A DNA stretch of 64,000 bases, from assembly GCA_000004695.1 (NCBI GenBank), contig CM000151.3, positions 4,096,001 through 4,160,000 of the forward strand. Direction: 5' to 3'. A program made the translations under genes and the position numbers. Within the stretch, counting starts at the first letter, position 1. Each line of letters begins with the position of its first letter. This document shows, in pieces, positions 5,272 to 58,785 of this stretch. The notes below the pieces were generated by a model, which saw nothing but the letters and a program-made list of their open reading frames with translations, was not told the origin of the DNA and did no database searches. The DNA is from Dictyostelium discoideum (taxonomy: Eukaryota).

Positions 5272-5567
5272 TTATAGAAAGTACTGAGTGAATTATTGTA
5301 TTTTTTGAGATGTTTAGGAAGTTCTATTGCGGGTGTTGATGATGATTTGTGACACCCCTTGTCCTGTTTTATCAATTGGTGCGTGGTGTGTTATTTTGTT
5401 TTTATATTGTTGATTTATTGAGTAAATTTTATTTGTTTTTATATTTGTTTCAGTTAGAAGTGCTGCGTCCAGCTTGTTGTTGTCTAAAACGGTGTTTATT
5501 ATGCTGGCAGATTGGATGGTGTTGGATCCTTGGACGTTCCAAACACCTATTCTTATTGTGTTTTTCT

Positions 5568-6902
5568 TTATAGTTTTATTTGGGGTAGATTTTTATCTAC
5601 CTTTTGAAGTTTCTGGTTTATTTTGTCTTCTAACTGATCTTTACTTTGTTCATTGTGTTGTTGGTCTTGTGTGTTTGTGGGGTTTTTTGATTTATTGATT
5701 TGTTTTAGAATTTCCTTGTTGAAGTTGTCTATATCTTCATCCATTTTTGTTTTTATGCTTTTTTGTCCATATTCACCCAATTTTGGTTTGACTGGTGTTT
5801 TGTTGGTCTTGTTTGTTTTGCCTTGTTGTTTCTTTTTTGGTGTGTTTAACAATTTACTTGGTGAATCGATAATTTTCGATGGTGTACCATAGGTTGGGCT
5901 GAAACTCATGATATGTTTTATTGGAGAGGAGAAGAACCATTGATTTGAAGGGATTGAAAGTGGGAATTCTATTTTTCTTATTGCATCAGTGTTTGGGCTG
6001 GTGAAGTCGAAGATATCATTTGCCTCTCTAAGTTTTTCTTCCGTTGTTAGTCCCTTTGTTTCGCCGTGTTGTTTTATTGGTGTATTGTATGGAGATGGTG
6101 GTTCGATAGGTTTTTCTGATTTTGTTTTAATTTCTTGATTGTTTATCGATTGTGTATTGATCTCATTCTCTATTCTTGTTAGTTCATCTACGTTTTCTAG
6201 TGATGCTTCTATTACCTTTTGAGCTGTATCATCTAGGGCCATAAATGTTTTATCATTAGATGAGGATGTGATTGGTGGGATAATGATTGTTCTTTTTCCT
6301 TGTTTTGGTATTTGTTCTGATGTAGATTGTGGTTGTTGTTCATCTGATTGTTTTTTATTTTTGTTTTCTTCTTGATTTTCTGGTAATGAGGTTTGATCTC
6401 TCCATCCTTTGTTGGAGTGTCCAATTAATGTTAGATTGTCTAGTTCAATGATAGTGTCAAATTCTTCTACGACTCTTTTCACTGTTTTGATAATTAGAGT
6501 TTCGCCTTTAATTTCTGATTTAATTAGTTTACATCCTTCATTTTCTATTACCCATTCTATTTCTGTGAGTGATTTATACCAATCAAAATCTGTATACATA
6601 TTTTTTGGTCTTATAGTGGTTATAAATTGTCCTTTTAATTCTGCATCAAACATATTTACAAAATAGATTACTGTACTAATACTGTCTGTGAGAATTTTGA
6701 ATGTATTATTACTTTTGATTAAAACATCTTTTTTGTCCAAACTTTTTTCTAAATCTTTTTTTATTTTATCGTCTGGTTCGTGATTGATGTTTATGACGTA
6801 TTTGAATTGTTTTTTTTTTAATTGAGTTTTATCCACAATTTCGCTTATTTTTTGTAGGCATTTGTGTTGCTTAATATTTGTGGTGTTGTTTGTGATTTTC
6901 AT
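5568..6902 (-). CDS. TRE5-A ORF1 protein, 444 aa (~51 kDa)
   Basis: Uninterrupted 444-codon ORF inside the TRE5-A element. Its first 63 codons are duplicated at 4986..5186 as part of the 3' B-module copy. Confidence 0.7.
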   Translation of the reverse strand: MKITNNTTNIKQHKCLQKISEIVDKTQLKKKQFKYVININHEPDDKIKKDLEKSLDKKDVLIKSNNTFKILTDSISTVIYFVNMFDAELKGQFITTIRPKNMYTDFDWYKSLTEIEWVIENEGCKLIKSEIKGETLIIKTVKRVVEEFDTIIELDNLTLIGHSNKGWRDQTSLPENQEENKNKKQSDEQQPQSTSEQIPKQGKRTIIIPPITSSSNDKTFMALDDTAQKVIEASLENVDELTRIENEINTQSINNQEIKTKSEKPIEPPSPYNTPIKQHGETKGLTTEEKLREANDIFDFTSPNTDAIRKIEFPLSIPSNQWFFSSPIKHIMSFSPTYGTPSKIIDSPSKLLNTPKKKQQGKTNKTNKTPVKPKLGEYGQKSIKTKMDEDIDNFNKEILKQINKSKNPTNTQDQQHNEQSKDQLEDKINQKLQKVDKNLPQIKL

Positions 6903-43226: not shown

Positions 43227-45041
43227 TTAATAAGCATCATAAGCATTTTCAACGATTAATTTAGCTTGAGCAACTATTTCTGGATTAACAGTATAGTCAG
43301 CTTGTTGACCATTAATTTGACGAATAACTTCTTGTTCTAATTCAGAAGTGATTTCAAAAGCAGCTTCTGCCAAATCTTGGTTTTCAATTTCTTCTGGAAC
43401 CAATTGACGTTTAGAAACACCTAATCTGGCGAATAAACCTGGGTTTTCAGCATCTTCTTGATTATTACCATTTAAACCAAGACCAATATCAAGACCTAAT
43501 AAATCATTAGTATTTTCTTTTTCTTGTCTTGATTTTCTACCTTGTCTACCTTGTTTTGATTTTCTTGATTTTCTTGATTGACTTTCTTCAACTTTCTTAT
43601 TAACATTGTTTTCATTTTGATTTTGTTCTTGATTAGCATCATTCACTTGATTATCACCATTTTCTTGATTATCTTTGTTTTCTTGATTAGCTTTGTTTTC
43701 TTGATTAGCTTTGTTTTCTTGGTTTTGTTTGTTGGCAACGTTTACATCAGTTTGAATTGCAGCAGATTGTTTAGAGTTTTCACTTTGTTTTTGTGCAGCA
43801 TTATTTCCAATTTCAATACTTAGAATTGATTTATTGTTGTTTTTTTCTTGTTGATTTTGTTGAGCTTGTTGGTTTTGTTGAGCTTGTTGAGCTTGTGGAT
43901 TTTGTTGAGCTTGTTGATTTTGTTGAGCTTGTTGATTTTGTTGAGCTTGTTGATTTTGTTGAGCTTGTTGATTTTGTTGAGCTTGTTGATTTTGTTGAGC
44001 TTGTTGATTTTGTTGAGCTTGTTGATTTTGTTGAGCTTGTTGATTTTGTTGAGCTTGTTGAGCTTGTTGAGCTTGTTGAGCTTGTTGATTTTGTTGTTGG
44101 TTTTGTTGAGCTTGTTGTTGATTTTTTTGTTGTTGATTTTCTTGTTGATTTTGTTGTTGTTGTTGATTTTGTTGATTTTGTTGTTGATTTTGTTGACCCA
44201 AACCAACTTCAATGTTTAAAATTGATTTGTTACTATTTTGTTTTTGGTTATTTTGTTTATTCAACTCTTCTTGTTGTTGATTATTTTGTTGATTCAATTT
44301 TTCTTGTTGTTCATTCTTTTGTTGACTCAATTGTTCTTGGTTTATTTCTTGTTTTTCATTTTGTTCTTGTTTTTCATTCACTTCTTGTTTTTCGTTCACT
44401 TCTTGTTTTTCATTCACTTCTTGTTTTTCATTCAATTCTTGTTTTTCATTCACTTCTTGTTTTTCATTCACTTCTTGTTTTTCATTCACTTCTTGTTTTT
44501 CATTTTGTTCTTGTTTTTCATTTTGTTCTTGTTGAATTTTGCTTTGATTATTTTTATTTTCTTGATTGTTTTCTTGATTGTTTTCTTGATTGTTTTCTTG
44601 GTTTTTTTCTTGATTGTTTTCTTGGTTTTTTTCTTGATTGTTTTCTTGATTGTTTTCTTGATTTTCTTGATTAAGTTCCATTTCTAGATCTTGGAAATTA
44701 TGAGTGGCTTCAATTTGTTTAATTTCTTTATCCAAGTTATTTTCTTGTTCATTTTCATAATTGTAACCTTCATTCCATTTTTTATTAACGATTGACCATT
44801 CTGGATTTTGTTCATTATGATTTTCATCAAGGACCATTAAATGGAACATGTTCTTCCATTCATCAACGTATTCTTCCATTGATGCCAATCTATTATAGAT
44901 TGATTGTTGATATGGATTCAATTGAGTTTGGTCAATATTTTCAAACCATTTTTGTAATTTAACATCAGTAGTGGCACACTAGGAAAAAGAAAAAAAAAAG
45001 AAAAAAAAAAAGAATAAAAAAAAGAAAATTAATTTTAATAA

Positions 45042-45170: not shown

Positions 45171-46215
45171 TTTATTAATAATTTAATTTATTTTTTTAGA
45201 AAAAAAAAAAAAGGAATGATACAAATTGTACAATTACTATTATTTTATAATATTATTAATATTATTTTAATGGAAACTTGATACTAGATAAACCAAAAGT
45301 CAAAGTAAAAAAAAGAAAAAATTATTAAATAGTAAAAAAAAAAAAAAAAAAAAATTAAATTAATTATAATAAAGAAAAAAAAAAAAAATGAATAAAAAAA
45401 TTAATATGAATTATATATATAACAAAAAAAAAAAAAAAAAAAAAAAACTCCCACTAAACACACTAATTATATTGCAATGGTATATTTAACAAAAAAAAAA
45501 AAAAAAAAAAAATTATAATAATAAAATTATTTAAATTATTGTCATATTCACAGTCTACTAAAAATTAAATCAACACTCACATATACATTCACACATTTAC
45601 AAAAAAAAAAAAAAAAAAAAAAAAATTATTTTACACATTAATAATACACCCAAACACTCCCACTAAAAATGCAATGGTGTGTTTTTCACTACCGGCATAT
45701 TTAAATTAAAAAAAATAACAATAATAAAAACTAACACCCAGAATGAATTAAGAAAATTTACAAAATTTTTTTAATTTTTTACACAATAATTGCCAAAAGA
45801 ATCAAATAAATTAAAAAAAAAAAATAAATAAAAAATCAATAACCAATGGTCATTGGAAGAGAGATAACTAAAAATAGAAAAAAGAAGTAAAAAAAAATTT
45901 AAAAAAATAAATTAAATAAAAAATAATTTTGTGATGTAATTTACATTTTTTTTTTTTAATTATTTTTTTTAATTATTTTTTATTATTGTAAAGTAGTTAA
46001 TTGATAAAAAAAATTAATTAAAGTGAAAATAAAATTATATAAAACGAAAAAAAAAGAAATAAACATTAATGGGTCTAAATGTGACATATCACCATATTTT
46101 TTTTTTTTTTTTTTTTTAATTAATTTTTTAAATATTAGTATTTTGTTTTGTTTAGATAATTTTTTATTTTTTTTTTTTTTTTTTATTTTTTTTTATTTTT
46201 TTTTATTTTTTTTTA

Positions 46216-46464
46216 TTATTTTTTATTTTTTTTTATTTTTTTTTTATACATACAATAAATTCTTTTTTCAGTAGAAGTAGCAAAAAATAGACAAGTTTCA
46301 GATTCAATTTTAAGTTGAGCTCTATGATAAATATCTAATAGAAAGGGTTTCTTTTTATTAAGTTCTGCCATTGATCTTTCTTTAATTTCTTTAATTTCTC
46401 TTATTTCTCTATCTTTATATTCTTGAATTGCTTTTAAATATTCCACATTTGACATTCTATTCAT
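46216..46464 (-). CDS. Small protein, paralogue 1, first exon. Charged coiled-coil N-terminus; a downstream exon is probable.
   Basis: MNRMSNVEYLKAIQEYKDREIREIKEIKERSMAELNKKKPFLLDIYHRAQLKIESETCLFFATSTEKRIY. Conservation with the paralogue at 47227..47496 ends exactly at a shared GTATGT donor. A candidate second exon (acceptor cacatttag|AC ~46075) would add a hydrophobic tail, YPLMFISFFFVLYNFIFTLINFFYQLTTLQ. Confidence 0.4.
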   Translation of the reverse strand: MNRMSNVEYLKAIQEYKDREIREIKEIKERSMAELNKKKPFLLDIYHRAQLKIESETCLFFATSTEKRIYCMYKKKIKKNKK

Positions 46465-47114
46465 TTTTTTCTTAATTTATTTATTTATTTTTATTTGATT
46501 ATTTATTTTTTTTTAAAAAATTTATTTATTTTAATTTTTTTTTTATTTGTTTATTTATTTTTGTTTTTATTAAAATTACGTAATTTAAGTATAAATAAAT
46601 TAAATTTTATTTTTATATTAAACTGGGTATTTGATTAAAAATAAAAATAAAAAAAAAAAATTATTTGAAAAAATAAATTAAAAAAAAAAAAAACCATTTA
46701 AAATATTTTAAATCTTTTCCCAGAGAAACAGAAAAAAAAACCAAACCAGGAATTTTATTATTCACGAATGATAGGATTTTGTCGACAGAATAAAAATAGT
46801 AAGAAAATGTGAAAATAATAAATGTTAACCTTTCGACAAAGTAGCAAAATAGTTAAAAAAAAAAATAAAAAATAAAAAAAAAAAAAAATAAAAAATAAAA
46901 AACAAAAAATAAAATAAAATAAAAAAAAAAAACTCTGATCAAAACAAAAATATTTTTTTTTTATTTTTTTTATTTTTTTTTTTTTATTTATTTATTTATT
47001 TAATTTATATTATTACAAAAAGGATTTAAGTAAAATGTTTAAAAAATTATAAGCACTAAAAATACATAAAATAAAGAATAATATGTCTGTATTATTATTA
47101 TTATTATTTCATTT

Positions 47115-47146
<32 letters not shown>

Positions 47147-47226
47147 GGCACCAGTATTAGTAAAAATTTTATTATTATTATTATTAAAATTATTATTATT
47201 TTTTATTATCATTATTACTATTACTA

Positions 47227-47496
47227 TTATTGTTTTTTTTTTTTTTGATTAAAAAAAAAAAAAAAAAAAATCAAAATTATACACATACAGTAAACACTTT
47301 TTTCTTGTGTAGTACCAAAATATACACCAGTTTCGGCATCTATTTTAAGTTGGAATCTATTTATTCTATCTAAAAGTGATTTCTTTTTATTAAGTTCAGC
47401 AAGAGATTTCTCTTTAATTTCTTTAATTTCCTTAACTTCTCTTTCTTTATATTCTTTAATTTCTTGTCTATATGAGGAATTTGACATTTTATTCAT
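47227..47496 (-). CDS. Small protein, paralogue 2, first exon
   Basis: MNKMSNSSYRQEIKEYKEREVKEIKEIKEKSLAELNKKKSLLDRINRFQLKIDAETGVYFGTTQEKSVY is ~55% identical to paralogue 1. Same GTATGT donor position. Confidence 0.4.
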   Translation of the reverse strand: MNKMSNSSYRQEIKEYKEREVKEIKEIKEKSLAELNKKKSLLDRINRFQLKIDAETGVYFGTTQEKSVYCMCIILIFFFFFFNQKKKKQ

Positions 47497-48031
47497 TTTA
47501 TTATTTTATATAATTTAATTATTTATTTGAAATTTTATCAAAAACACTTTATTATATTATTATTATACAGGTCGGGGTTTATATATATATATATATGTAC
47601 CGGTGACTGGTAATTATGGCTATCACTTATAAAAAGCCTGTGTGATTATTTACAGTCTGTTTTTGAAAAAAAAAGAAAAAAAAAAAAAAAAAATGAAAAA
47701 ATAAAAAAAAAAAAAAAAATAAAAATAAAAATAAAAAAAAATAAAATTTGTAAAAATCTAATGGAAGACATAACATTGCTTTAAAATTTAAACAGTAACC
47801 TTATAACATGCACCAACCAAAAAAAGATTTCTTTTTTTTTTTTTTATAACAAATCAGGAAATTTTAAAAATTTTTTTTTTTTTTTTTTGTTTTATTTTTG
47901 ATTTGTTTTGATTTTTTTGTTTGATGTTTTTATTTGCACTATTATTCTTTCTCTGTTTTTTTTTTTTTTTTTTTTTTTGTTTGATTTGTGTGTACTTTTA
48001 CTTAATTTTTTTTTTTTTCTTTTCTCTTTTT

Positions 48032-48584
48032 TTAAGCATGATTTACAGAAGAAGCAGTATTACTACCACCATTTACATTTAATTGACCTTGAGATTTTCT
48101 AAAAGATTCTTTTTCAGATAATTTTGAACTGATATGTTGAACGATTAGATCTATGGCAACTACATTATCAGCACCTCTTGGAATAATGACATCGGCATGT
48201 TTCTTGGTTGGAAGGATATAGTCATCGAAAGCAGGTTTAACAAATTTTTCGTATTGATATAAAACACCCTCGAGACTACGACCTCTTTCAGCGATATCTC
48301 TCATAACACGACGAGATAAACGAGTATCAGAATCTGTGTCGACAAAGATCTTAATATCCATTTGCTCTCTCAACGATTGTGTATAGAATGATAAAATACC
48401 TTCGAATAAAATAACATCAACATCACCTAATCCTACTGTTTCTTCTAAACGTGAATGACTCTTGAAACAATATGTTGGAATTTCAATATCTTTACCATCT
48501 TTTAAATCTCTTAATGCATTTTCAACTAATGACCAATCAAAAGCATCTTAATAGTTTTTAAAAATAAAAAATTAAAAAATTAAT

Positions 48585-50330: not shown

Positions 50331-52870
50331 ATGGATCAAAGTTCAGAAAAAGAACTAGAGAAATATATTAATAATAGGGTGCAATGGGATTCATTACCAT
50401 CACATGCAAAATCAATATTAGACCAATCACATGTAAAATATAAACAATACTGTTTAAAATATAGTATCAAACATCAATTGAGATGGGATACAAATTTAAT
50501 TAGTAGTTTTGTTACTGATGAAAGATTATATTATCAAGAAATTGTTAGATTATCGGTTGCAAATTTAGTTGTATGTATTTAATATTGTTATTATTGAATA
50601 TATATATATAAATACTAACACATACACATATAAATAAAATAGTTATATCCATATCATATTCAAGATAAATTAGTACCAATGTTAAATGTTACACCATTTA
50701 AATATTATTTAATAATGATGATTGAAACAATGACAAATTGTAAGTAATATCTATATATATATATATATAATATATAAAATATTAAAAAATATAAATATAT
50801 TAATATGTATTGTTTAAAAAAAAAAAAAAAAAAAGCAAAATCATATGATGAAATACCAAATTTTACAGCAGTTGATTGTATAAGAGTATTAGGAATTGGT
50901 AGAAATCAATTTATAGATTTAATGAATAAATTTAGATCAAAAGGATTTTTATTTAAAAAGAAAAAAGATGTTATTAGAGGTTTATTACCAACAAGATCAT
51001 TAGAGAAGAATATTGAATATTGGTGGATACTTAGATACGGTTATCCAAATCAAGATGAGGAAAGACAGGGATCATTACCAGCTAGTGAATTGGAGGTATT
51101 GGATGATCTAAAGAGATCCAATGGTATCAATGGTAAACAAGCTGGTATCTATTGTAGAGAATCTGTGATATCATTGATTTCCAAAGGACTGGTTTACATT
51201 GATGTACCCATTCAAAATCAAGATACAATCTCTGTACCACCTTTGGAAGGATTTGTTATGAATAGAGTTTTAGGTGACTATTTCGAGAATTTACTCTACA
51301 AAATATTCGTATCAATTGATGAACGTACAACAATTCAAAAGTTATCAGAAGTTTTACAAATTAATGTTGAATTGGTTAAACAAGCATGTTCACTATATTG
51401 TAGATTAGGTTTTGCAAAGAAAAAGAATTTAGAACCATTATTACCACAAACACCATCACCATCATCAGAAGGTGATACACATTCAAAATGGCATCATTCT
51501 TGGATAACTTATTATCAAGAAAATGAAACTATAATACCACAACCAATTTTAAATAATAATAATAATAATAGTAATACAATTGATAATAGTAATAATAATA
51601 ATAATAATAATACAAATATAACATCATCAAGTAGTAGTAATACAGCAATTAATAACTCATCACAATCATCTACATTAGAGAATAATGATAATATTGTTGA
51701 AGGTGTAGTTGATGAATCATTTAATAATGGTAATGAGGAACAAAAAAGAATTGGATTTGTATTTGATAGTAGTATAACGGCATTTTTAATGATGGGTAAT
51801 TTAGGATATGGTTTAAAGAATCATGCAGTTACAATGTTTGAACGTGGTAAATTATCAAATGAAGCATTGGCTGATTTCTTACAAGAACTTGATAAAATTG
51901 ATGTAGAAGAGTTTGTAGATTCTGAAGCTAAATTATATGCAACAAATGCAATCTCTTTAAGAGATACAATTAGACATTTAAAAAATAAATATCGTATTGA
52001 TGATAGTAATAGTAGTAATAGTAATAGTAGTAGTGGTGGTGGTAGTGGTAATTTACAAGGTTTAGATTTAATTAGTTGTGAAAGAATGAATCAATTGGAT
52101 GAAACAACTAGAATTAGAGTTTTAAAAAAGAATTATTCTGTACTGATTTCAATGGCACCATTATCAATTGATTATTGTCCAGTTATTAGTTCTGTACCAC
52201 CAAATTTTGGACCGGCAGTTTATGAAGTTCATTCATTTTGGTTTAGAATTTATTTGTATAGTATGGTTGGTAAAGGCCCAAATTCTATCCTCTTACCAAA
52301 GGGTACAAGATTGAAAAGAATTCCAACCATTTTCAAAGATTGCGAGAAAATACTAGTTTGTCCAATAGATCATGATCCAACAACTGTAAACTTGTCACAA
52401 TTGTTACCATCTGTAAATGAAACTTTATTATCTTCACCAGTGTTATTATCAGCTTATACCTTTATCAAATATGATACTCAACCAAAGTTATCAAAGTTAA
52501 TGAGTCATAGTCGTTCAAATAGTATAGTATCATCTTCAAAAGATAATCAATTACTCTATCATATTCCTTTCCCATTGGATGATTTATCAGCTGATAATGG
52601 TTCACCTAAAAAATATACAAATATTATAACTAATAATACAACAACAACAACAACAACTACTACTACTACAAATACTACAAATTTAAATAATAATACTATT
52701 ATAAGTGAAGATCAATATAATTCAGATAATATTCATACTCATCCAATACTTTATAAAATTCAATCTACTTTTAATTTAAAAAATTCTTTTGGCTATATTA
52801 CATTATTAAAAAAAGAAACTCATATTTTATTAAATAATAATAATAATAATAATAATAAAAATAATATTAA

Positions 52871-52964
<94 letters not shown>

Positions 52965-53291
52965 TCAATTACACATCAAAAGGTTTTTGAATATTTACCA
53001 TTAAATGTTTATTATGGTATACCAATATTTGATGATAAATTAAATAGAGAGGTTTGTGCAAAAATTGATAAATTCAACTTATTATCTAAAGAAAATTTAA
53101 ATAGACATAGTATGGATAGTAGAAATCTTTCGTTAAATCTATTCAATTTTATATCTTCTACTTGTCCTCCAATTCATCCAGATTTAGATTCAATAGATGC
53201 CACTAAAATCAATTCAAATTTACCATCTGTTCAAAATATTCCCTTTCCAACTCAAATCATTACTTTTGTAAATGGAAATTTAGATTTATAA
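50331..53291 (+). CDS. FAM91A1 orthologue (WDR11-complex subunit), ~930 aa. Exons 50331..50570, 50643..50739 and 50836..53291.
   Basis: Strong alignment with human FAM91A1 across the splice junctions. [11 protein letters not shown]…TPFKYY with [56 protein letters not shown] with [63 protein letters not shown] matches almost identically. Donors GTT|GTATGT and AATT|GTAAGT. Acceptors aaaatag|TTA and aaaaag|CA. Confidence 0.85.
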
Positions 53292-58285: not shown

Positions 58286-58785
58286 TTAATGTCTGTATGT
58301 ATTATCTTGGTTATTGTTATTATTATTATTGTTATTATTATTGTTATTAAATTGGTGATTATTATTATGTGGAATGAATTGATTTTGATTTTGATTTTGA
58401 TTTTGATTTTGATTTTGATTTTGATTTTGATTTTGATTTTGATTAAAATGTGAGTTTGGACTTGGTTTAAAATCTTTAAATTCATTTAATTTATGTTGGA
58501 AAATTTTATTTCTTGCATAATTAATACCTTTATCTGCAACCCATTCACCAGTGTTAAAGAAACCTTTAGCAACCATAGAACCAGTTTCATTCTTAATCAT
58601 TCCAACTACTTTTTGTCCTACACTATTAGTTTGTTTTTTTAAAAAAAAAAAAAAAAAATGTTAGAAAATTAATTAATTAAAAGGAAAAAGAAAATAAATA
58701 CTTACTTTAAACCAGTGGTTCTTCTTGCACCAGCGCAAATTGTTGAAATAATAACGCAATCACAAATGAGTGAAATTAAACCCAT
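58286..58785 (-). CDS. Small 141-aa protein. Cys-rich hydrophobic N-terminus, Gly/aromatic middle, (NQ)n and polyN tail. Exons 58785..58706 and 58631..58286.
   Basis: MGLISLICDCVIISTICAGARRTTGL / NVGQKVVGMIKNETGSMVAKGFFNTGEWVADKGINYARNKIF… Donor TTAAA|GTAAGT, acceptor taatag|T. The (NQ)n stretch is encoded by a (gatttt)12 tandem repeat at 58370-58445. Confidence 0.5.

Follow-up and report, generated by a model that had tools for sequence, protein, structure and literature searches.

Two-exon genes in tandem in Dictyostelium discoideum encode predicted tail-anchored proteins that are candidate small subunits of serine palmitoyltransferase

Serine palmitoyltransferase (SPT) catalyzes the committed step of sphingolipid synthesis. 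Its activity is raised 30- to 100-fold by a small subunit in yeast, plants and animals, where this subunit also sets the length of the long-chain base. Dictyostelium discoideum is increasingly used for the study of sphingolipids in phagocytosis and infection, and the SPOTS complex has been detected in this organism. We report here on two adjacent genes in a 64-kb stretch of very AT-rich D. discoideum DNA (the window), which we take to be from chromosome 2 of strain AX4, and on the possibility that their products are small subunits of SPT. The core of the small subunits, or ssSPTs, consists of about 33 residues around a single transmembrane domain with the N-terminus in the cytosol, and the terminal extensions are dispensable (PMC6148460). 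In mammals, the chain length depends on the small subunit that is present, with Met25 of ssSPT, in the numbering of that review, setting the acyl-CoA chain length (PMC6148460). A 2024 pathway reconstruction found no SPT small subunit in D. discoideum (Listian et al.).

The two genes, designated copy 1 and copy 2, are on the minus strand and downstream of a uridine-kinase gene. A first-pass annotation of this DNA had proposed a pair of paralogous micro-genes here. This proposal was borne out, as both open reading frames (ORFs) are present (copy 1, 46216-46464, 82 aa; copy 2, 47227-47496, 89 aa; ORF-to-ORF distance 763 bp) and an orthologue of each is annotated in D. firmibasis. Both copies start with M-N-(R/K)-M-S-N and continue in frame for 69-70 codons, where a GTATGT donor interrupts the frame in phase 1. 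The proposed conservation of this donor extends further than the two copies, since D. firmibasis and D. purpureum also have a phase-1 donor at this codon. Exon 1 of copy 1 (46254..46464) begins with the ATG at 46464 and comprises 70 codons plus 1 nt, encoding MNRMSNVEYLKAIQEYKDREIREIKEIKERSMAELNKKKPFLLDIYHRAQLKIESETCLFFATSTEKRIY. Downstream of the donor, the first AG to leave the frame open ends at 46075; the resulting phase-1 intron of 179 nt (46075..46253, GTATGT...ATTTAG) and the 30 residues added by it, YPLMFISFFFVLYNFIFTLINFFYQLTTLQ, agree with the in-frame acceptor about 180 bp downstream and the 30-aa hydrophobic tail that had been predicted. Exon 2 of copy 1 (45983..46074, stop TAA at 45983-45985) encodes (Y)PLMFISFFFVLYNFIFTLINFFYQLTTLQ, which comprises a transmembrane (TM) helix and a 7-residue tail, and the full protein has 100 aa.

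For copy 2, exon 1 (47289..47496) begins with the ATG at 47496 and comprises 69 codons plus 1 nt. It encodes MNKMSNSSYRQEIKEYKEREVKEIKEIKEKSLAELNKKKSLLDRINRFQLKIDAETGVYFGTTQEKSVY, which covers the charged helical N-terminal region and the first half of an ssSPT-like core. The second exon had been called ambiguous, and several acceptors are indeed possible. However, only the one ending at 47087 yields a tail, YILFFILCIFSAYNFLNILLKSFL, that aligns with the tail of copy 1, and this acceptor is matched by the annotated D. firmibasis gene RB653_001951, which settles the matter. The phase-1 intron is then 202 nt (47087..47288, GTATGT...ATACAG), and exon 2 (47013..47086, stop TAA at 47013-47015) encodes (Y)ILFFILCIFSAYNFLNILLKSFL, a TM helix with a C-terminal tail of 4 residues, for a full protein of 93 aa. 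The acceptors ending at 47224, 47218, 47056 and 46933 were rejected: their tails could not be aligned to copy 1 or to any orthologue, and none of these tails was present in the protein collection. Unspliced models of both copies are contradicted by the annotation in D. firmibasis and by the conservation of exon 2.

The same gene structure is found in other species. A profile of both copies retrieved two D. firmibasis proteins, RB653_001951 (90 aa), the orthologue of copy 2, and RB653_001950 (98 aa), the orthologue of copy 1. Their genes are adjacent, in the same order and directly downstream of the PRK (uridine kinase) gene. Both are annotated with two exons and with a GTATGT donor that is in phase 1 and interrupts the codon interrupted in D. 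discoideum, and their introns are 86 nt in RB653_001951 and 83 nt in RB653_001950. The tail of copy 2 is identical to the annotated tail of RB653_001951 at 23 of 24 positions, and that of copy 1 can be aligned with the tail of RB653_001950, YPIILVLFFFCVYNFINILYKIFYHLNL. RB653_001951 (locus position 5294) begins with the Met that corresponds to M4, and the codons before it are R-I-K, with no initial ATG; it may be that the first three residues of the D. discoideum proteins (MNK/MNR) are dispensable, or that translation really starts from M4. An exhaustive search of 1.84 billion representatives with a hidden Markov model (HMM) returned only dictyostelid proteins, and the sole addition was DICPUDRAFT_146570 of D. 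purpureum. This 75-aa model (6001-6228 of GL870941.1) reads through the intron and has no TM tail. In the corrected model, exon 1 spans 6001-6190, the intron is 125 nt and exon 2 starts from 6316, giving a product of 86 aa with the tail VIISLIVILFSTYNLLNLLFRFL and a phase-1 donor at the same codon. D. purpureum has one copy at the syntenic locus, downstream of the PRK gene. Homologues were seen in these three Dictyostelium species only, in profile searches and in a metagenome scan in which none of the 93 pattern matches was a relative.

The last exon of the uridine-kinase (PRK family) gene (48032..48373, minus strand), upstream of the micro-genes, serves as the syntenic anchor; it is 97% identical to the PRK gene of D. 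firmibasis and 89% identical to that of D. purpureum. The flanking FAM91-like, uridine kinase and aminotransferase genes are collinear across species. The FAM91-like and uridine kinase genes are 97-98% identical to those of D. firmibasis and 82-89% identical to those of D. purpureum, and the aminotransferase gene is 83% identical to that of D. firmibasis. The micro-genes (45983-47496) evolve much faster than their neighbours (48032-48373 and 50805-53291), as their products are 57% and 88% identical to the D. firmibasis orthologues compared with 97-98% for these neighbours.

We compared the rates of nonsynonymous and synonymous substitution (dN/dS) between each copy and its D. firmibasis orthologue. 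Copy 2 is 88% identical at the amino acid level with a dN/dS of 0.11, and copy 1 is 57% identical with a dN/dS of 0.36. For exon 2 the values are 0.21-0.23 across copies, copy 1 having 0.23. Both exons are thus under purifying selection, and copy 2, the unannotated one, is the more constrained paralogue. It could be argued that copy 2 alone is functional and that copy 1, its constraint relaxed, is a duplicate in the course of decay or neofunctionalisation. The lower identity of copy 1 in comparison with the 97-98% of its flanks and its higher dN/dS agree with such a fate, as do the loss of the G and Y from an ETG-Y motif (ESETCLFF in copy 1) and the lack of a match to the ssSPT family PF11779. 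On the other hand, copy 1 has an intact frame in both species, as well as an intact start, phase-1 donor, acceptor and hydrophobic tail, and its dN/dS is well below 1, including that of exon 2. Strong divergence is likewise seen between human ssSPTa and ssSPTb, which share about 37% identity (PMC6148460). We consider it improbable that copy 1 is such a duplicate.

The spliced proteins of copy 1 and copy 2 are 56% identical (BLASTP E = 1e-33), and the alignment reaches through exon 2. The DNA identity, which had been described as low, is in fact 76% in exon 1 (158/208, z = 18), with an alignment score of 103 compared with a maximum of 53 among natural AT-rich null segments. Such segment scores against a natural AT-rich null were used in place of BLASTN, the output of which was swamped by A/T low complexity. 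The first-pass annotation also had the likeness between the copies stop at GTATGT. This holds for the introns, which cannot be aligned and show no excess likeness over shuffled DNA (z = -0.2; p about 0.09 against real AT-rich DNA of the window), but the similarity resumes in exon 2. A likeness extending into the non-coding flanks had been named as the sign of a simple segmental duplication. The introns have no such likeness, but the flanks have a weak one, with p about 0.03 for the 200 nt upstream of both copies and p about 0.005 for the 200 nt 3' of the stops (45783-45982 compared with 46813-47012, score 43), both against real AT-rich DNA. The likeness of the 3' flanks may be left over from the duplication or reflect a 3' element common to both copies, and long T-runs may also account for it. 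Since both copies are present in D. firmibasis, D. purpureum has a single syntenic copy and the introns cannot be aligned, the duplication is, on the evidence of these comparisons, older than the split of D. discoideum and D. firmibasis and not a simple segmental copy. There are no copies beyond these two in the 64-kb window.

Cross-species annotation, synteny, the conserved position and phase of the intron and the low dN/dS lead us to conclude that the two genes are almost certainly real, with two exons each and products of predicted tail-anchored topology. The contrary explanation is that they are not genes but chance ORFs in AT-rich DNA, or the outcome of a recent segmental duplication. The extreme AT-richness, in which spurious ORFs are common, and the weak likeness of the 3' flanks would fit with this. 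Nevertheless, this explanation is effectively refuted by the cross-species data, that is, the conservation with synteny in three species, the retention of intron phase and position with different intron lengths and the low dN/dS, and also by the unalignable introns of the paralogues; we regard it as hardly credible.

The predicted topology follows from the distribution of residues along the proteins. Charged and polar residues make up the N-terminal 65, of which the first 45 or so are rich in Lys and Glu, and there is one hydrophobic helix at about residues 70-93 with a best 19-residue hydropathy of 2.1-2.3 (2.28 in copy 2). This single helix ends 7 residues from the C-terminus in copy 1 and 4 residues from it in copy 2. 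Both copies therefore have what defines a tail-anchored protein, one TM segment lying no further than about 30 residues from the C-terminus and no N-terminal signal or TM segment, in agreement with the topology suggested in the first-pass annotation. Across the two copies, the two D. firmibasis proteins and the corrected D. purpureum product, the invariant residues are Q/F-L-K-x-[DE]-[AS]-E-T … T-x-x-E-K-x-x-Y and, in the hydrophobic helix, F…Y-N. The juxtamembrane motif reads Q-L-K-I-D-A-E-T-G-V-Y-F-G-T-T-x-E-K-x-V-Y. The AlphaFold2 (AF2) model of RB653_001950 shows one helix at residues 3-97 (pLDDT 86, with 74-80 at the juxtamembrane motif), and a single continuous helix of this kind is uninformative for a fold search. 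An identity as a SNARE was not supported, as the sole such match (E = 0.34) was to the unspliced copy 2, an artefact, and neither spliced product nor any orthologue has a Pfam match to SNARE/synaptobrevin.

The current annotation of these genes is incomplete, which bears out the earlier remark that they are easily missed by gene finders. The exact spliced protein of neither copy is present in a collection of 15 billion proteins. Copy 1 is represented in AX4 only by an unspliced 82-aa model, DDB_G0274711 (Q556E4 / XP_644023.1), which is identical to the ORF, reads through the donor and takes the intron as coding; a literature search on DDB_G0274711 found nothing. For copy 2, four forms were tried and none is in the protein collections searched. 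No D. discoideum protein besides DDB_G0274711 was returned by the homology searches. In D. firmibasis the two exons are already modelled correctly, whereas the D. purpureum model lacks the TM tail, like DDB_G0274711. The orthologues in both species are annotated as hypothetical proteins and have neither a functional annotation nor a Pfam domain.

The first-pass annotation gave no function to these genes, and the lead to SPT is new. PF11779 (serine palmitoyltransferase small subunit; gathering cutoff 29.8 bits) was the only recurring family signal, and no other family appeared consistently. It was the top Pfam match for the trimmed sequences of copy 2 (22.1 bits, E = 1.2e-4), RB653_001951 (20.6 bits) and RB653_001950 (22.7 bits, E = 7.5e-5), and the D. 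purpureum product gave a weak score of 10.9 bits in the same register as the others. Taken together, the scores of the first three proteins spanned 18.6-22.7 bits. For reference, human SPTSSA scores 82.7, Arabidopsis ssSPTa 78.3 and yeast Tsc3 13.0 bits. PF11779 was matched by none of 10 reversed or zone-shuffled sequences, nor at E <= 1 by any of 134 decoys, which consisted of 55 TM-like ORFs that occur naturally in the same AT-rich DNA and 79 zone shuffles. In the decoy panel there was one strong stray match, Mitofissin, which proved to be a genuine gene fragment. The remaining unexplained Pfam matches among the decoys at E <= 0.01 numbered 3, compared with 1.3 expected, and for peptides of this kind Pfam E-values may overstate significance by about 2-3 fold, or a few-fold at most.

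A profile-profile comparison with hhalign against 59 vertebrate and plant ssSPTs gave scores of 17.8, 22.0 and 23.4 with 2, 4 and 5 dictyostelid sequences, respectively (P = 6.4e-4). The score with five sequences exceeded those of all 100 full and all 100 zone-preserving column permutations (maxima 15.9 and 17.6), and the Pfam and hhalign registers coincide. In this register, T56, Y59, F60 and E65 of copy 2 align with T24, Y27, M28 and E33 of human SPTSSA, and K66, Y69, Y82 and N83 with R34, F37, Y50 and T51, the last of which is N in plants. Of the core residues, Y27, E33 and Y50 have conserved counterparts, as have R34 (K here) and F37 (Y here), and the counterpart of M28 is F or I. From the offset between the 68- and 71-aa isoforms, Met25 in PMC6148460 would correspond to human M28. 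The layout of the ssSPT core is also present, with a single TM helix, a charged region before it and an all-helical structure predicted by AF2. These alignments and scores indicate a similarity to PF11779 that exceeds composition or chance and has a consistent register.

Several observations weigh against a role of these proteins in SPT. None of the five proteins reaches the gathering score of PF11779, so that formal membership in the family is not attained; copy 1 has no match to it at all, and for the D. purpureum product it is not the top match. In the reverse direction, the dictyostelid profile retrieved no canonical ssSPT from the 1.84 billion representatives and no SPTSSA or Arabidopsis subunit at E <= 10 from PDB sequences, where only chance matches were seen (a Clostridium hypothetical protein at E = 2.7 and actin at E = 0.6). 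A narrower HMM of vertebrate and plant sequences gave 3.8-11 bits, compared with 7.8 for natural decoys. W32, N38, S39 and G52 of human SPTSSA, which are highly conserved among canonical subunits, are not kept. The unspliced copy 2 still scores 19.3 bits with PF11779 compared with 22.1 for the spliced form, which discriminates only weakly between the two models and implies that about 25 juxtamembrane residues supply the greater part of the signal. There was no sequence similarity to Tsc3 (hhalign 11.3, P = 0.21, with 20 of 60 permutations scoring as high), and the metagenomes contained no distant relatives. Finally, SptA, SptB and an Orm-like protein were recovered with GFP-Sac1 in a pulldown from D. 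discoideum, and a small subunit was not among the proteins reported (Schäfer et al. 2023, PMC10550967). This non-detection is unsurprising, since the reference proteome has neither correct sequence and is without copy 2 altogether, and only about three soluble tryptic peptides of at least 7 residues are predicted per protein (IDAETGVYFGTTQEK, MSNSSYR and SLAELNK for copy 2; IESETCLFFATSTEK, KPFLLDIYHR and MSNVEYLK for copy 1).

These points are accommodated if the proteins are real tail-anchored proteins whose likeness to ssSPTs arose by chance, in a family restricted to Dictyostelium that has another role, for example as a subunit or regulator of another complex in the endoplasmic reticulum (ER) or endomembranes. 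The occurrence of homologues in three Dictyostelium species only and the somewhat optimistic E-values are in keeping with this possibility, as are the sub-threshold scores, the narrow margin of the narrower HMM over decoys, the silent reverse searches and the missing canonical W, N, S and G. Chance is less suited to explain why one and the same family keeps appearing for diverged members, in an unchanged register, but for none of 144 decoys, and why the profile-profile score grows with the number of sequences and tops every permutation. In addition, topology and size fit, the documented gap in the pathway is for exactly an SPT small subunit, and no alternative family emerged. We view a chance likeness as quite possible, if short of probable. 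That the two genes encode dictyostelid small activating subunits of SPT, the counterparts of SPTSSA/B, ssSPTa/b and Tsc3, appears to us evenly balanced, because the sequence evidence is sub-threshold and one-directional but consistent and coincides with the documented gap in the pathway. The two copies are the best candidates so far for the SPT small subunit of D. discoideum.

If the two proteins are SPT small subunits, we propose that the C-terminal core of about 40 residues would form a helix packed against SptB (LCB2) in the ER membrane, with the juxtamembrane Phe60 of copy 2, the equivalent of human Met28, placed at the acyl-CoA tunnel, and that the small subunit would stimulate the SptA/SptB heterodimer. 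As in Tsc3, the long helix at the N-terminus would represent an extension specific to the lineage. Copy 2 could then be a conserved "housekeeping" subunit, with copy 1 as a fast-evolving paralogue. A bolder version, which we think unlikely though worth stating, is that they represent a new structural variant of the SPT subunit, with a Lys/Glu-rich helical arm of 45 residues on a minimal diverged core, and that the paralogues tune SPT differently. The long-chain bases of D. discoideum in the literature are 18:0;3 as the major and 20:0;3 as the minor species. By analogy, and with the same reservation, the major C18 base might depend on copy 2 and the minor C20 base on copy 1, in the manner of ssSPTa and ssSPTb but with Phe/Ile instead of Met/Val at the selectivity position.

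This work provides two testable candidates for the SPT small subunit with corrected gene models. They would have been missed because the model of copy 1, in reading through the intron, loses the anchor, copy 2 has no entry in the proteome and the divergence of the core matches that of Tsc3. Even if the link to SPT fails, the corrections to DDB_G0274711 and to DICPUDRAFT_146570 of D. purpureum stand, and copy 2 adds a strongly conserved, previously unannotated gene to the reference genome.

One further ORF and one further gene in the window were observed in passing. Directly downstream of copy 1 on the minus strand is a 564-aa ORF (43227-44921) that consists mostly of Q/N/E-rich repeats (NQENNQE..., EKQEVN..., QQAQQNQQ...); genes of 572 aa in D. 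firmibasis and 509 aa in D. purpureum, without Pfam domains, occupy the same position. Another small two-exon gene extends from about 58785 downward on the minus strand, with its ATG at 58785, a GTAAGT donor after codon 27 and exon 2 about 100 nt downstream. Its spliced product, MGLISLICDCVIISTICAGARRTTGLNVGQKVVGMIKNETGSMVAKGFFNTGEWVADKGINYARNK..., matches Mitofissin (PF08520) with 43.5 bits (E = 2.8e-11, cutoff 27). Exon 1 of this gene was one of the natural decoy ORFs.

The closest described systems are the small subunits of animals and plants and Tsc3 of yeast. Like human SPTSSA/SPTSSB and plant ssSPTa/b (PF11779; 7K0I, 6M4N, 7YJK), the candidates are small, with a predicted cytosolic N-terminus, one TM helix and a short C-terminal tail, and D. 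discoideum has two paralogues, as do animals and plants. They have in common with SPTSSA/ssSPT the elements T-(G/A)-hydrophobic-Y-(M/F), E-(R/K)-x-(V/I)-(F/Y) and, well inside the helix, Y-(N/T), for which the spacing of 17 residues from the E is identical, and the core of about 40 residues is in one register. The candidates differ in that they score 22.7 bits or less, compared with the cutoff of 29.8 and about 80 for true members, have a Lys/Glu-rich helical N-terminal extension of 41-48 residues, and carry Phe, or Ile in one orthologue, at the Met/Val position for chain length. They resemble yeast Tsc3 (Q3E790; 8C80-8C82) in having about 80-100 aa with a long N-terminal extension before a C-terminal core and TM helix; residues 35-77 of the 80 in Tsc3 correspond to PF11779 positions 4-46, and residues 45-85 of the 93 in copy 2 to positions 4-44. 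The N-terminal cytosolic extension of Tsc3 binds Lcb2, but the extensions of the candidates are unrelated to it in sequence. Tsc3 is a proven subunit at a PF11779 score of only 13 bits, and true small subunits can therefore be as divergent as the two D. discoideum proteins.

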